Of a DNA stretch of 64,000 nucleotides, positions 42,015 to 48,821 are shown in pieces. Below the pieces are notes generated by a model. The model was not told where the DNA came from, ran no database searches, and saw nothing but the letters and a program-made list of their open reading frames with translations. The stretch spans positions 3,552,001 to 3,616,000 of the forward strand of contig CBDCJV010000002.1 of NCBI GenBank assembly GCA_965217895.1, given 5' to 3'. The DNA comes from Waterburya sp. GTDB lineage: Bacteria; Cyanobacteriota; Cyanobacteriia; Cyanobacteriales; Xenococcaceae. The position numbers and the translations under genes were made by a program. Every line of letters starts with the position of its first letter. Within the stretch, counting starts at the first letter, position 1.

Positions 42015-43492
42015 TAGGGCTGTTTCATTCTAGAGCTAAAGTGCGGTAAATTGATATAAAACCTAATTTAACCGCTCAATGACTTTAAAAAACTTTGATA
42101 AAAGCTTAATTGACTATTTGAAACAAATACCTGATGAGCGAAAAGCAGGTGAATGAATGAGCATCTCAGTATACTCACAATAGTCAAGGTCAATGGATTG
42201 CAATTGATGGCAAAAGTTTGAAAAATACTGTCAACGACTGTTATGGACAACAGCAAAACTTCGTCATGATGGTTTCGGCTTTGACTCATGAAGGCGGGGA
42301 AATTTTAGGCATAAAAGTTAGGGAAAATAAGAAACAAAGTGAGATTGTCGCCGTGCAAGACTTATTAGAATTGCTGCATTTAAAAGGAGTGGTGTTCACG
42401 ATGGATGCTCTACATTGTCAAAAAAAACAGTCTCAGCAATTATCGACAGTGGTAATAACTACCTAATTGTGGTCAAAAGAAATCAAAAAACATTACATCG
42501 ACAAATTGAGCGGAGGAAATGCGTGGGTTTCCCGCGCTTATTCCACTCCGCTGTTGAATTTCAAGCAACAAGTACAAAGGCGATTAGTTGCTTTGAGCAG
42601 ATCGAGAAGACGAGAAATCGACTAACTCATCGAACTGTAGAAGTATTGGCTCCTCCATCAAACATTGATTCTCAATGGGTTGGAGTTCATAGTATCATCA
42701 AAATTTTCCGTTCGCGAACAAGAGGTAATCACGATTACGAATCGGATTCGGCGACTTATTATATTAGTTCTTTACCCAACTCCTTCGGAGTTAAGTAGCA
42801 AGTAGCGCGTTCTGGAGAACGCCGACATCGCTTCGCGATGGCGACACGCTCCAGCGTGTGCAAATAGCAGATAGCAATTAAGAAAAACTCCGAAGTTGGA
42901 TATGCAGCCTCTTCATTGATGAGGAAAAGATGAAAAAATAATTCAACTCTTGAATACATGCGGGCAAGCCCTTTGTCTGACACAGGAGCTATCGCTCCAT
43001 GTCGTCGTCTTCGACGACTTTGCAAGCTTTGCTTGCTGTGGCAGAGGTTGAACTTGCAGACGCGCTTCGCGTCTGGCCGTTGCGGAGCAACGTCGGCAGC
43101 CTCCAGGCTGCGCTACTTGTTATCTGCTACTTGTGAACAGCAACTTCTTGGCTTATTCCCCAAGGTATTGGCCGACATTGGGGTATCGAGAATCGTTGGC
43201 ATTGGGGAGGCACGGACGGCGAACCTGCGTCGCCGTATTGAGTGCCGTTTAAGGATGTCGTAACGAAAGAAGATAACAGCCCTCAACTTCACGGCAAAGC
43301 ATCCACAAACATCTCTTTGATTAAAAGTTGGGTTATTAACCTACTGAGAGTTCATGGTTTTGATTCTATGACTGAGGCAATCAGTTATTTAAGCCATAAT
43401 TTGCCATTATTACTTTCTTTGTGTCACTGATAGGTGTAGTGAATAGATTTATTCGCGATCGCATCTTCTATTTTGAGAATGAAACAGCCCTA
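42015..43492 (+). mobile_element. Decayed ISAs1-family insertion sequence
   Basis: 17-bp TIRs TAGGGCTGTTTCATTCT/AGAATGAAACAGCCCTA. Transposase fragments DGKSLK, TMDALHCQKK, RHWGIENRWHW and KDVVTKED. Confidence 0.88.
42110..43430 (+). pseudogene. ISAs1 transposase pseudogene with a deletion, frameshifts and nested insertions
   Basis: Fragments lie in several frames, interrupted at about 42507-42553, 42777-43135 and 43208-43247. Confidence 0.85.
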
Positions 43493-43573: not shown

Positions 43574-44539
43574 CTATTTTTCAATAGACAATTTTGAGTT
43601 ATCATTCTTGGCTGACACTGCTAAATAAATACCAAATAAAACTACGGCAAACGCCAACCAATTTAATAAGCTTAACTGTTCGGCAAAGATTACCATAGCT
43701 AAAATTGCTGCAATTAAAGGAATTGCTAACATTGATACTGCCACAAATCCTGAAGAGAATTTAGCCAAACTATAAGTTAAAAGCCCTTGTCCTAATGCCT
43801 GAGAAATTAAACCCAAACCAACAACCGCCAACCAGCCAGTACTAGAAATTGGTAGTAATTGTTCTCCTGTTAGCAACACCAAAGGTAACAAAAATAAACC
43901 CCCCGCTAAACTCGTCCACTGCATAATTATCGAAGTGGAAAACTGCACTCTCAACTGTTCCAAGCTCAAAATACTAATTGCGGAAAACATGGCTGCGGTT
44001 AAGGCTGCCCCATCTCCAATTAGACCACTATCTGCTACCTGCAAGTCCTCAATACCAATAGCTACTGCGCCAACTATTGCAACTGCCATGCCGACTAAAA
44101 ACCGTGGCGAAAATTGCTGACGCAAGATTAGCCAGCCAAATAAAGTAGTGAAAATTGGCATCATGTTGTTGAGCAAAGTCGAATTGGCAATGCTGGTTTG
44201 AGTTAAAGACCATGCCCAAAGTGAAAGCGAAATAGCAAAACTAATGCCTGCTATTAATAATAAAGAGATTGCCCTACTTGTATATAGTGTAGGTTCAGAC
44301 GGCAAATCTGGATCGAGATTGCTAGTTTTTTTAAAGTTGTTCCAAGTGCTGAATGCGATCGCGGCAATCAACAGGCGATCGCAAGTAATAGCATTAGGTT
44401 TAATTTCTGTAGACGCGATCGCAATAAGAATGGAAGCAGAAGCAATTCCTAGTAGAGCGATACATAAAGCTACAGGTGCAATCCAATTTGCTTTTGACTC
44501 TAATTCTTTGCCAATTCTACCGAGCCGAAATTGGTACAT
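43574..44539 (-). CDS. DMT (EamA) family transporter
   Basis: About 10 TM helices; TSIANSTLL...PIF and SQALGQGL motifs. Confidence 0.9.
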   Translation of the reverse strand: MYQFRLGRIGKELESKANWIAPVALCIALLGIASASILIAIASTEIKPNAITCDRLLIAAIAFSTWNNFKKTSNLDPDLPSEPTLYTSRAISLLLIAGISFAISLSLWAWSLTQTSIANSTLLNNMMPIFTTLFGWLILRQQFSPRFLVGMAVAIVGAVAIGIEDLQVADSGLIGDGAALTAAMFSAISILSLEQLRVQFSTSIIMQWTSLAGGLFLLPLVLLTGEQLLPISSTGWLAVVGLGLISQALGQGLLTYSLAKFSSGFVAVSMLAIPLIAAILAMVIFAEQLSLLNWLAFAVVLFGIYLAVSAKNDNSKLSIEK

Positions 44540-44777
44540 TTAAAAATATTAAATAAGAAAGCTAAATACTTTATTTAGTTAAAAGTTAAATTTTAAAAAT
44601 TGATGCGATCAATGATACATTTTGCTAAAAAGCTCGATCTTTAAAAGATTTAATAACAAAGAAAAGTCAAAGTTTCGTTTCTATTTCTTCAATTTGAGCA
44701 TATTTTGTCATGGCTTTAAGAGATTTTTTTCCCAACTCTGTCCGCTAATGCTGTATTTCTGTGACAAAAAAAAGTTT

Positions 44778-44824
44778 GTAGTTAAAAGTACAGTTTTTTA
44801 TATTAGAACTGTATACCGTATACG
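44778..44824 (+). promoter_or_regulatory. NtcA class II promoter of the porin-permease operon, with an overlapping operator
   Basis: TGTA-N8-TACA at 44777-44792, 22 nt to TACCGT (44814-44819). CTGTATACCGTATAC overlaps the -10. Confidence 0.75.
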
Positions 44825-44880
44825 AATATTGACATAAACATTGTCTGACGAAATAAATTTAGGGTGTGAGAAGTAAAATC

Positions 44881-46533
44881 GTGAATTTACTCAAATTTTT
44901 CCTTAAACAAAGTTGTGCCGCCTTTGGTTTTTCACTAATGCTTAGTAATATTGTCTACGCACAAGAGGTGAATGAAGATTTATCTTCTGACAAAAAAAGA
45001 CCGTCGGCATAGCCGACGGTCTTAGAATTCAGTAATTCTTTAGCTCAAGTCAACAATGTAGTTGAATTGAAAGATGTTGCTTCCAATGATTGGGCTTATG
45101 AAGCACTGAGGAGTTTGGTCGAACGTTATGGTTGCATAGCTGGCTATAGCGATCAAACTTTTAGGGGCGATCGAGTTTTAAGCCGTTATGAATTTGCTGC
45201 TGGTTTAAACTCTTGTTTGAACCAGATCGAGCGGTTAATTGCTCAAAGTGAAGCGGTCAGCCAAGAAGATGTGGATACCTTAAACAGGTTAACTCAAGAC
45301 TTTGAAGCAGAATTAGCAACTATTAGAGGACGAATAGATAATGTAGAAGCAAGAACTGCTTTATTAGAAGACCAACAATTTTCTACTACTACTAAACTTA
45401 CTGGACAAGCCTTATTTGCTGTGGCTGGTGCTTTTGGGGATGAAAAAGCCAATAGCAATGACTCAGTTGACGACCAAATCTTTTTTTCTGAGAGAGTGCG
45501 TCTAGTGTTTGATTCGAGTTTTAGTGGTAAGGATTTACTCCGAGTTCGTCTGCAAGCAGGTAACACTCCTGACCTCAGTGACGCGACAGGTACGAGAATG
45601 ACAAGGTTAGCTTTTGCTTCCCCTACCGATAATCAATTTATAGTCAATCAACTAGAATATCGCTTTCCCATTGGCGATAAAGGAGAAGTTTTTGTTGAAG
45701 CCTATGGTTTCCTCGATTTGTTTGTACCGACTCTCAATCCTTTAGATGGAGACTACGACACCGTAATTTCTGGTTTCGCCCTCCGTAGTCCGATTTATTT
45801 TCAAAGTGGTTTATCTGGTATTGGCGTTCAATACGATTTAACCGATTCGATTAATATATCTGGTGGTTATTTGGCTGGTGATGCTACTGCCAACGATCCC
45901 AATACTGGATTATTTAATGGTCCTTTTGGCGCGATCGCCCAATTAACTTTTTATCCAACTAAAAGCTTTGCTATTGCCGCAACTTATTTACGAGGCTATG
46001 ACGATGGTAGCGGTAACGCACCGCCTGGGGGCTTTTTTGGTAGTGAGAATGCTACCTCACCGTTTGGGGACAATATTTCAGCCATTCCTCCAGAAACAAG
46101 GGAAGAATCTAGTAATATCACCGCTACACCAGTAGCTTACAACTCCTATGGCATAGAAACTCAATATACTCTTAGTCCGAAAATCGTTCTAGGCGGTTGG
46201 GCTGGTTTTACACAAGCCGAAGCCAAAGATGGAGTTAATGATGGGGCGAATGCAGATATTCTTTACTGGGCAGCAGTTTTATCTTTTCCCGATTTGGGCA
46301 AAGAAGGGAATTTAGGCGGTTTGGTTTTTGGTCAACCTTCAAAGGTAATTAACAACGATGTAGGAGAATTTGAAGACCAAGACACTTCCTATGCGATCGA
46401 AGCATTTTATCGTTACCAACTTAACGACAATATTAATATTACTCCTGGTTTAATAGTCATAACTAACCCAGAACATAACGCAGACAATAGCACCGATTAT
46501 ATTGGCGCAATCCGTACCGTCTTTGCATTTTAA
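44881..46533 (+). pseudogene. SLH-domain cyanobacterial outer-membrane porin interrupted by an in-frame TAG at 45010-45012
   Basis: GTG at 44881 gives a signal peptide (MNLLKFFLKQSCAAFGFSLMLSNIVYA-QE) in frame with the 45067-46533 ORF (SLH DWAYEALRSLVERYGCI, FSTTTKL, C-terminal RTVFAF). Confidence 0.75.
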
Positions 46534-46617: not shown

Positions 46618-48057
46618 ATGACCAATGTAGAACTTAACAATGCCTCTGAAACTATAGTTCCTAACCCAAGTAATTTAATTTTGGGATTAGAAGACAATCC
46701 TCCATTTCAAACCGCCTTTTTGGTTTCTTTACAGCACGTCTGCGTTGTTTTTGTCCCTAGTGTAACCCCTGCCATTTTGATCGGTCGCGCCCTAAAATTA
46801 GATGCTGCAAGCATTAGCTACATTATTGGTATGACATTATTTGTAGCTGGATTTGCTACCTTTGTTCAAGCTAGACGTATTGGTCCAATTGGTTCTGGTT
46901 TACTGAGTATTCAAGGACCAAGCTTTGCTTTTTTACCACCTATTTTTAGCATTATTGCAGCAGGTAACGCTGCCAATAAAACACCGGAAGAAACCCTGGC
47001 ATTGATTCTGGGTGTAGGATTTTTTGGTTCGTTTATCCAGATTATTTTGAGTCGCTTTCTGCAATTTGCTAAAACTGTTTTTCCCCCACTTGTGACAGGA
47101 ACAGCCGTAACCCTAATCGGTTTAACTTTAATTCGCTTTGGAATGTACGATATGGCGGGAGGAGATGCAGCCAAGACGGCTGGTGATTATGGCAGCCTGA
47201 GATATTGGGCAATTTCTATTCCCGTGTTTTTTACGGTAGCTGTCTGTAGCGCCACCTCAAATCGCTATCTTAGAATGGGGTCGGTGATTATCGGTTTAAT
47301 TGTTGGTTCTATTATCTCAGTCTTTATGGGTATGACAGACTTCAGCCAGTTAGGAAGTATACCTGCTTTTAATATACCTATTCCGTTTCGGTTTGGTTTA
47401 GATTTTAATCTAGCTACCTTTATTCCCTTTGCGATTATTTACTTTGCTACTTCTCTAGAGGTCATTGGCGATATTACCGCAACTTCGATGGTAACTGGAG
47501 AGCCGATTAGTGGTCCAAAATATATTAAACGTCTTAAGGGTGGACTATTGGGAGATGGGTTCAATTCGTTTATTGCCTCTTGCTGTAGTACCTTACCGAC
47601 GGTGACGTTATCCCAAAATAACGGAATTATCCAGCTTACAGGAGTTGGTAGTCGCTATATCGGCTTTTACGTCGGCGGTATTCTAGCTTTTTTAGGATTA
47701 TTTCCGATTATTGGCGGAATTTTAACCGCTATTCCTGCTCCTGTTTTTGGTGCAGCGATTATGCTGATGTTTGGTACGGTTGCGGTGGCTGGGTTTAGTA
47801 TTCTAGGTGAAATTGAGATGACCAATCGTTCTTTGATTATTGTCGGCGCATCATTAGCCACCGGGTTAGGCGTAACTTTTGTCCCAGAGGCACTAGTAGG
47901 ATTTCCTGAACAAATACGTGGTGTTTTAGAGTCAGGTATTTCTGTCGGTTCTCTTTGCGCCTTGATTCTCAATCTTGTCCTGCCAAAGTCATCAAAAGAT
48001 CGGATGCTTGAAGAGCCAGCCTCATTAGAGCCAGAAACAAATCCCATTACTAAGTAG
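46618..48057 (+). CDS. NCS2 xanthine/uric acid permease
   Basis: LQH in TM1, FPPLVTG, and the NAT signature SQNNGIIQLTGVGSR. Confidence 0.92.
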   Translation: MTNVELNNASETIVPNPSNLILGLEDNPPFQTAFLVSLQHVCVVFVPSVTPAILIGRALKLDAASISYIIGMTLFVAGFATFVQARRIGPIGSGLLSIQGPSFAFLPPIFSIIAAGNAANKTPEETLALILGVGFFGSFIQIILSRFLQFAKTVFPPLVTGTAVTLIGLTLIRFGMYDMAGGDAAKTAGDYGSLRYWAISIPVFFTVAVCSATSNRYLRMGSVIIGLIVGSIISVFMGMTDFSQLGSIPAFNIPIPFRFGLDFNLATFIPFAIIYFATSLEVIGDITATSMVTGEPISGPKYIKRLKGGLLGDGFNSFIASCCSTLPTVTLSQNNGIIQLTGVGSRYIGFYVGGILAFLGLFPIIGGILTAIPAPVFGAAIMLMFGTVAVAGFSILGEIEMTNRSLIIVGASLATGLGVTFVPEALVGFPEQIRGVLESGISVGSLCALILNLVLPKSSKDRMLEEPASLEPETNPITK

Positions 48058-48081
48058 ATAATTAATGATTAGATTTGAGCG

Positions 48082-48213
48082 ATGAAAATCAAAGTTATTA
48101 ACCCCAATACAACTGCCAGTATGACCGCAAAAATTGGCGTGATCGCCCGTTCGGTTGCCAATCCTGAAGCTCAATTAATCTTTTTAAGCTTTTGTAACTT
48201 TAATGGGGTTTAG
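48082..48213 (+). pseudogene. Truncated allantoin/hydantoin racemase (N-terminus only)
   Basis: MKIKVINPNTTASMTAKIGVIARSVANPE matches the family N-terminal motif INPNT..SMT, then stops after 43 codons. Confidence 0.8.
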
Positions 48214-48245: not shown

Positions 48246-48821
48246 GCGATCTCTCTACTCGTACATACAGGAAGACAAATCTGGATCGAAATTGTTAGTT
48301 TTTTGAAAGTTATACTATTTCTCAAAAGTAACAAGAGACTTCCTTCGGGTTGGTCAAAGGAGAAAGGGGAAGGGTCAAAGTTTTGTATATCAGGCTTTTT
48401 CCCCTTTACCTTTAACCCGCAGGCAAGCACCCGAATGCATCGGGTGTTTGCCTGCGGGCGCATTCCGCGCCCTTACCCATCAAAAGTATCTATCTAGCTA
48501 TTTACGAGAAATGGTATTATTTCAAGTTCCAAAAGCGATCGCGGCAATCAACAGGCGATCGCAAGTAATAGCATTAGGTTTAATTTCTGTAGACGCGATC
48601 GCAATTAAAATAGAAGCAGAAGCAATTCCTAGTAGAGCGATACATAAAGCTATAGGTGCAATCCAATTCGCTCCAGACTCTAGTTCTTTGCCAATTTTAC
48701 CGAGTCGAAATTGGTACATTTATTAGGATGTCGAAGAATTTAAGCGTACTATATTTAGTTAAAAGTTAAATCCTCTAAATTGATGCGATCGATGATACAT
48801 TTTGCCCAAAAGCTCGATCTT
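48246..48821 (-). pseudogene. Truncated second copy of the DMT gene 5' part plus its upstream region
   Basis: Highly similar to 44266-44641 (MYQFRLG.IGKELES.ANWIAP); broken by a MITE. Confidence 0.85.
48312..48517. mobile_element. MITE with a nested hairpin element
   Basis: TIR ATACTATTTCTC/GAGAAATGGTAT. Absent from the intact paralog at about 44338. Internal 19-bp stem at 48416-48458. Confidence 0.75.

Follow-up and report, generated by a model that had tools for sequence, protein, structure and literature searches.

The porin gene and its neighbourhood

The window (the whole 64,000-nt stretch of Waterburya sp. DNA analysed here) carries a gene for a surface porin that is split by one in-frame stop codon. 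The 5' part (44881..45012, +) has a GTG start, at which position the sister lineage G019 has ATG, and encodes a 27-residue signal-peptide-like stretch (judged by eye), a linker and a TAG, 43 aa in all. The body (45013..46533, +) comprises an SLH domain (about 45070-45198, +; PF00395) and an OprB barrel (about 45265-46530, +; PF04966), both over the Pfam cut-off. As read in the initial annotation, the signal peptide is in frame with the porin body with a single TAG between them, and the rest of the gene is free of stops and frameshifts: from GTG 44881, 43 codons lead to the TAG at 45010-45012, followed by 506 open codons and the TAA at 46531-46533. The products in the window strain are a 43-aa peptide and a 488-aa internal ORF lacking the signal peptide, the latter annotated as P0002; the continuity from signal peptide to barrel that the TAG cuts in the window is in frame in G019 and in the protein P0122. 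The nearest named homologues are from Myxosarcina and relatives, relatives of the porin are named 'iron uptake porins' in databases, and ten other porin paralogues are present in the window genome. The protein is like SLH-OprB porins of the SomA/SomB type in having a signal peptide, an N-terminal SLH domain, an OprB barrel and a C-terminal Phe, the features given for that type in the available part of PMC9705863, which makes no mention of phage. Unlike SomA/SomB as described there, the window porin is an accessory paralogue in a purine-salvage cassette and has an NtcA-type promoter.

The promoter region contains an NtcA-type box, GTA-N8-TAC (44778..44791, +), kept in G019 and found as GTA-N8-CAC in G028, and, 22 nt past it, a -10 box, TACCGT (44814..44819, +), whose TAN3T pattern is kept in G019 and G028. 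By sequence motif this is the class II NtcA-activated pattern, for which the accessible text of PMC3898017 gives the canonical layout GTAN8TAC, 22 nt, TAN3T. A loose form of the pattern has 177 matches in the genome; the match here is strengthened because it is kept in G019, and the conserved motif makes putative NtcA control of the porin a lead. Divergent from the porin lies a gene for an EamA-family transporter (43574..44539, -), in a cassette common to G019; 3' of the porin are an NCS2 xanthine/uracil permease gene (46618..48057, +) and the 5' remnant of an Asp/Glu/hydantoin racemase gene (48071..48166, +) that is whole in G019 and G028. In G019 the porin has as neighbours NCS2 permeases, hydantoin racemase, nucleoside hydrolase and a second porin, while the window cassette retains EamA, porin and permease, with the racemase reduced to the remnant. 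Such a neighbourhood points to purine or ureide uptake as a probable nitrogen source, and OprB porins increase under nitrogen stress according to the part of PMC5451487 at hand.

Several further observations concern the surroundings of the cassette. Just beyond it, a 308-bp second copy of the EamA start and upstream region (48448-48821 vs 44337-44641) is 87% identical to the first and suggests that this part was duplicated or acquired a second time. The 87-kb contig C1 of G000 (L151 6342-7484) has a divergent and incomplete version of the cassette, comprising the porin 3' end, joined permease ends and the racemase start; its identity to the window and to G019 alike is 87-92%, and it is either a mobile copy or DNA of another strain. 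Upstream of the cassette, fragmented ORFs at 42218-43263 resemble by eye a decayed ISAs1-type transposase; a Pfam search with two pieces of these ORFs found nothing. Identical sequence is common to C1 (12411) and the end of C2 (5142418) of G000, and the final kilobases of C2 (5199785-5202033) are apparently much more G+C-rich than the genome, which may reflect assembly overlap or foreign DNA.

A stop codon in the loop of a perfect hairpin

The TAG (45010..45012, +) is codon 44 of the gene. It had been described as lying in the loop of a perfect 12-bp hairpin whose inversion would restore the ORF, and both statements held: the arms (44997..45008 and 45012..45023, +; 12 bp each) are 100% complementary around a 3-nt loop, ATA (45009..45011, +), and the stop is abolished when the ATA loop is inverted computationally. 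The fold has a z-score of about -6 as RNA and -7 to -8.5 as DNA. Perfect hairpins whose arms span at least 12 bp and whose loops measure 3-8 number 132 in the genome, so a hairpin of this kind is not rare per se; among the 1,400 hairpins of a genome scan (arms of at least 8 bp, loops of 2-10) it is the sole case in which a stop in the loop is preceded by at least 35 open codons and followed by at least 150. A transcription terminator on the minus strand had also been suggested, and the hairpin and T-run are indeed present (44992..45023, -); a terminator-like site of this kind is not above chance, with 1 found vs 1.7 expected in shuffles. The commonest 12-bp hairpin of the genome is a different one, a REP-like perfect hairpin family starting GTAGGGGCGA, with many sites on C2 of G000 (e.g. 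277773, 619534, 3520971-3523922).

The insert and its repeat family

A 39-nt in-frame insert (44983..45021, +; edges ambiguous by 1-3 nt) lies in the variable linker that joins the signal peptide to the SLH domain. It is missing from G028 and G076, in which the sequence runs straight through, and its 13 residues are missing from the outgroup proteins P0003, P0004, P0005 and P0123. The initial annotation had proposed a genome search for the 27-mer hairpin; allowing up to 5 mismatches it is single-copy in the window genome, and a multicopy mobile 27-mer was therefore rejected. When 3 mismatches were allowed, matches turned up in 4 of 61 family genomes, none of them the same element. Exact matches to the stem numbered 34 in genome contigs, in records of unrelated taxa, and there were none in viral contigs.

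The core of the hairpin, TCGGC-NNN-GCCGA, is by contrast common: 327 sites were found in the 61 family genomes vs 65 for the reversed control, two of them in the window genome. On one strand 108 of 118 loops are of purine-N-A type (hand count, 8 genomes), where chance would give one-quarter, and the ATA loop of the porin is of this type. The core adjoins TnpB genes in L095 and L067 and is also nested in HIP1 sites of relatives. A flank pattern put 53 of the 84 printed core sites into three classes and left 31 unassigned. Among the HIP1-nested copies (n=29) the two loop orientations occur 14 vs 14, with 1 other; the IS-end copies assigned by flank pattern have one orientation (17/17), and an IS-end copy in L089 that the pattern missed has, by eye, a flipped loop; the third class is 6 vs 1. 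Because HIP1-type copies carry the loop both ways, the core loop does turn relative to its flanks, which would arise either by flipping or by insertion in either direction.

The sequence resembling an IS200/IS605 right end, with fixed loop orientation, was seen in L082, L095-L107 and L122; several copies have no adjacent TnpB gene where checked (L099) and are likely non-autonomous derivatives. In L061, L066 and L067 the core hairpin is seemingly nested in an outer hairpin upstream of a TnpB gene, and a perfect hairpin with 10-bp arms at L074 1491-1523 (G080, probably intergenic) has both the core and the CCG/CGG extension of the window's hairpin.

Four alleles in sister lineages

The comparison with orthologues of sister strains that had been recommended was carried out and gave four alleles at codon 44 in four sister lineages, namely TAG in the window, a stop in P0124 plus P0121, Leu in P0122 and a 12-nt deletion in G019. 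The 12 nt lost in G019 (45001..45012, +) are bounded by CCG repeats (45001-45003 and 45013-45015); without them the reading frame is unchanged and the stop is gone, leaving an intact porin of 546 aa. P0122 (550 aa) retains the four codons. P0124 (43 aa) ends at the window's stop codon and P0121 is a 488-aa body with the same internal start as the window's ORF; the pairing of these two is drawn from a single feature, contigs of identical size (4276). P0122 and P0124 are known as proteins alone. If its stem is kept, P0122 would have an N-T-T or N-C-T loop; candidates are ATT, one base from ATA, and TTT or TCT, the reverse of the commonest loops of the family.

The porin bodies of the four lineages differ at 19-33 of 487 residues. 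In the body tree the window is the sister of the remaining three, though weakly supported (80/87); in the first 43 residues, where the window and P0124 lineages have 8 differences, the pairs are the window plus G019 and P0124 plus P0122. On both groupings the ancestor of the four lineages already had the 12 nt, and the two stops fall on opposite sides. That the 12 nt were recently inserted in the window strain alone was discarded as a candidate, since the four codons are present in P0122 and P0124. No Met (TAT) allele occurs in the proteins (cluster representatives, with members listed), genomes and contigs examined. Searches of genus and family genomes for orthologous loci returned G019, G028 and G076 only, and two metagenome scans for P0122 or P0124 DNA were blank. 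Four of nine close orthologous alleles are broken (the window, P0124/P0121, G028 at 222 aa and P0005 at 430 aa), and 2 of 39 genus genomes have a full-length porin match. The hairpin site is real and unusual, and looks like a hot spot at which a conserved surface gene is opened and closed time and again.

The orthologue in G028 (L092 8705-9373) runs, where it ends at 222 aa, into a second racemase gene, with loss of the barrel. Residues 79-97 of P0122, in the SLH region, contain a cluster of replacements, several as in more distant orthologues, which suggests recombination with another porin allele.

The loop in two sequencing runs

Counting of the loop alleles in reads had also been recommended. 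Runs X1 and X2 are from one sample, are available as contigs only and may be the window's own source; 0.93 and 0.91, respectively, of the sequence words are present in them. Bin depths over 45002-45068 (43.4 in X1, 275.2 in X2) are the sum, by hand arithmetic, of two contigs, one of window type (28.5/189.5) and one lacking the 12 nt (17.8/102.5). The latter carries the substitutions of G019, and related strains co-occur in one sample; SNPs that distinguish the strains lie at 44993 and 45061-45086. On 44600-44900 both runs also show a third, minor allele at depths of about 5-7 and 24-37.

None of the best 40 of 242 entries from X1 and X2 has another letter at 45009-45011, and an altered major contig would by its depth outrank entries within these 40. 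The depth of the window-type contig shows no dip (28.6/190.3 upstream vs 28.5/189.5), from which we estimate by hand that TAT makes up roughly less than one-fifth of the window-strain reads, contigs being prone to drop rare variants. Window-type contigs thus show ATA and no TAT, within the same limit on rare variants. Invertons are recognized by both orientations in one population; X1 and X2 together yielded a single window-type contig. The initial annotation had allowed that the TAG might be an assembly error, which is contradicted by the ATA carried in the contigs of two runs.

Selection on the porin body

Compared with G019, the porin after the stop has a dN/dS of 0.118 at a dS of 0.24 (72 synonymous and 33 nonsynonymous differences), alongside 0.124 for the flanking EamA gene and 0.069 for the NCS2 permease gene. 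With G028 as outgroup, synonymous and nonsynonymous changes in codons 48-221 number 11 and 5 on the window branch and 11 and 4 on the G019 branch, with 7 codons unresolved, and on a branch of 0.11 a dead gene would be expected to accumulate about 6.8 further stops together with 129 replacements. The porin body is under purifying selection, and the window branch is not relaxed. The relaxed dN/dS expected of a simple pseudogene is absent, and an old pseudogene is contradicted by the dN/dS, the lack of a second lesion and the equal branch counts. It follows that the off state is recent, reversible or bypassed. In codons 2-41 there are zero synonymous changes between the window and G019 (P about 0.004), which suggests allele exchange between lineages, and such exchange could also spread the stop. 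The same-codon stop in two lineages has to be set against the 150 of the 550 codons of the porin that stand a single step from a stop.

Origin of the stop codon

Our current working hypothesis is that, in the common ancestor of the four lineages, the linker of a nitrogen-regulated porin received an in-frame 39-nt insertion bearing a parasitic mini-hairpin, which would have been tolerated since its loop was presumably read as sense on the coding strand. The perfect 12-bp stem may then act as a hot spot during replication, at which template switching between the arms would flip the 3-nt loop, a process that needs no dedicated enzyme. A flip to ATA would create the TAG and turn the porin off, as we infer for both the window and the P0124/P0121 lineages. 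The gene is open in the other two: in G019 the observed 12-nt loss could be due to slippage between the CCG repeats, and in P0122 the observed Leu to a base change in the loop. Inversion of the loop by template switching at an inserted hairpin, with a stop that is recent or reversible, is the best explanation we can offer, and one that we hold to be just about probable. Inversion is favoured by the same-codon stop in two lineages, by the excess and loop type of the core repeat, by the HIP1-nested copies with loops both ways and by the perfect arms of more than 9 bp with a short spacer; against it, the flipped Met allele was absent from all searches. It is the likeliest, albeit unproven, source of the stop and the most economical way for two divergent lineages to stop at the same codon. 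To this extent the ON/OFF micro-inversion first suggested survives, though the Met allele that a working switch would show was absent from the searches and the open sister that has the insert carries Leu. The other suggestion, a tiny palindromic element that inactivated the gene, is right about the insertion; simple inactivation conflicts with the purifying selection and the two open sisters. The two suggestions are thus each partly supported and fit together.

An explanation that dispenses with flipping is a point nonsense change of Leu TTG to TAG in an exposed loop, occurring twice, or once with spread by homologous recombination, in a dispensable and often-lost porin. The sole open allele that has the insert carries Leu, one base from TAG, and the Leu of P0122 and the stop of P0124 could be one point change apart. 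The proportion of broken alleles among close orthologues, the rarity of full-length matches in the genus, the ten other paralogues, the loss of the racemase from the window cassette and the co-occurrence of related strains are all as expected of such a porin. However, an ATT loop would be atypical of the family, where 2 of the 118 loops listed are ATT, and TCT and TTT, the reverse of its commonest loops, would also give Leu. Furthermore, the stop alleles differ at codons 41 (two before the stop) and 68, so a shared recombination tract would be under about 80 bp. We regard this account as possible, though on the unlikely side. The equal loop orientations in the HIP1 family could, likewise, reflect insertion either way instead of flips.

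A more ambitious version of loop inversion is that of a selected phase-variation switch, in which frequent flips would maintain ON and OFF cells in each population and set the benefit of taking up purines when nitrogen is limiting against a cost, for instance phage entry. The surface location of the protein, its NtcA-type promoter and the purine-salvage neighbourhood are suggestive, as are a stem that has stayed perfect despite the variable linker, two lineages that are off with intact bodies and the uniqueness of the site in the genome. Yet no TAT contig was present at depths of 28.5 and 189.5, where TAT would be below roughly one-fifth of the strain's reads (contigs drop rare variants), and the stop state is lost in two of the four lineages; we consider such a switch rather improbable. 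A related speculation, unlikely in our judgement, is that a parasitic mini-hairpin of IS200/IS605-REP descent now serves as a three-base switch that works without an enzyme. It would turn an NtcA-controlled purine-uptake porin on and off within the population, weighing the scavenging of nitrogen against a liability at the surface, for instance phage entry, with switch-less sisters locked on by Leu or by the 12-nt deletion.

It is also conceivable that the element brought the TAG with it and that the stop has been retained from the common ancestor onwards, UAG being read through at a low level that sustains selection and G019 and P0122 being full-on revertants. ATA and GTA loops are of the family type, the window lineage is still under purifying selection, and this history needs one change fewer on both the body tree (weak support, 80/87) and the N-terminal grouping. 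Against it, a tRNA with a CUA anticodon is absent among 41 tRNA genes, RF1 and RF2-like genes are open, and TAG is the stop codon in 515 of 1,996 long ORFs, with the TAGC context of the porin stop in 91, making the account very doubtful; genome-wide recoding of TAG was rejected on the same tRNA set, release factors and stop usage. Finally, hairpins can disturb polymerases and X1 and X2 possibly represent the window's own sample, but an error of sequencing or assembly has a negligible chance of being the cause, given the window allele at full depth in contigs of two runs, the absence of any other loop letter among the best 40 of 242 entries and a separate assembly of a divergent strain that stops at the same codon.

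Relation to known systems

The loop inversion that we favour resembles spacer inversion by template switching, which in the accessible part of a study in yeast takes place where perfect arms of more than 9 bp enclose a short spacer, both in parallel and reversibly (Abraham & Hazkani-Covo, 2021; PMC8604942); correction of inverted-repeat arms is described in proteobacteria in the available text of Lavi et al. (2018; PMC5941160). As in these reports, so far as their available parts extend, the arms are perfect and longer than 9 bp, the spacer is of a few bases and coding, the change would recur in relatives and no enzyme would be needed. The yeast cases, as there described, swap amino acids, gene sets with premature stops having been excluded, whereas a flip in the porin would make a stop; moreover, the present case concerns a bacterial surface protein, the stem comes from an inserted repeat and the flipped allele is inferred. 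Intragenic invertons, including a premature-stop class, are described in the part of Chanin et al. (PMC10028968) available to us, and like these the porin hairpin would combine an inversion lying wholly within a gene, between inverted repeats, with a resulting stop and two predicted ORFs. Those invertons, in the same text, are presumed to be driven by invertases, appear in both orientations in reads and are exemplified by one of 57 bp, in contrast to the 3-nt invertible part and single observed orientation of the porin hairpin. No recombinase or invertase gene is evident among the neighbouring ORFs. To our knowledge, a 3-nt spacer is too short for invertases.

With the subterminal hairpins of IS200/IS605 elements and with REP-like repeats, as far as our partial sources describe them, the porin hairpin shares the 13-nt core that flanks the TnpB genes of L095 and L067. 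Unlike IS200/IS605 ends and HIP1 repeats in those sources, the insert occurs once in the genome, its arms are perfect and symmetric, and IS-end or HIP1 flanks are absent; terminal motifs and multiple copies are lacking, the nearest likeness being a loose GTCAG 12 nt from the core (-) vs GTCAA at 9 nt in L095. The hairpin is probably related to the small dispersed repeats of cyanobacteria, e.g. SDR5 in HIP1 (Elhai et al., 2008, as cited in the available part of PMC4390886). In literature covered by title and the start of the abstract, a range that leaves most subscription papers outside, a stop made by a loop flip in a porin or a cyanobacterium was not found.

If our working hypothesis is true, hairpin loops that toggle stops would constitute reversible knockouts too small for inverton callers, and annotation would file them as pseudogenes or as signal-less proteins, as with the 488-aa P0002. 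A tiny repeat could in this way make a gene switchable by accident. The locus provides four naturally occurring alleles of a single gene, and a good system in which to measure loop flips is offered by the HIP1-nested repeat with the 13-nt core, whose loops lie about equally both ways (L064, L069, L070, L081, L098, L108-L146); in L127, two HIP1-nested copies have identical flanks and opposite loops.
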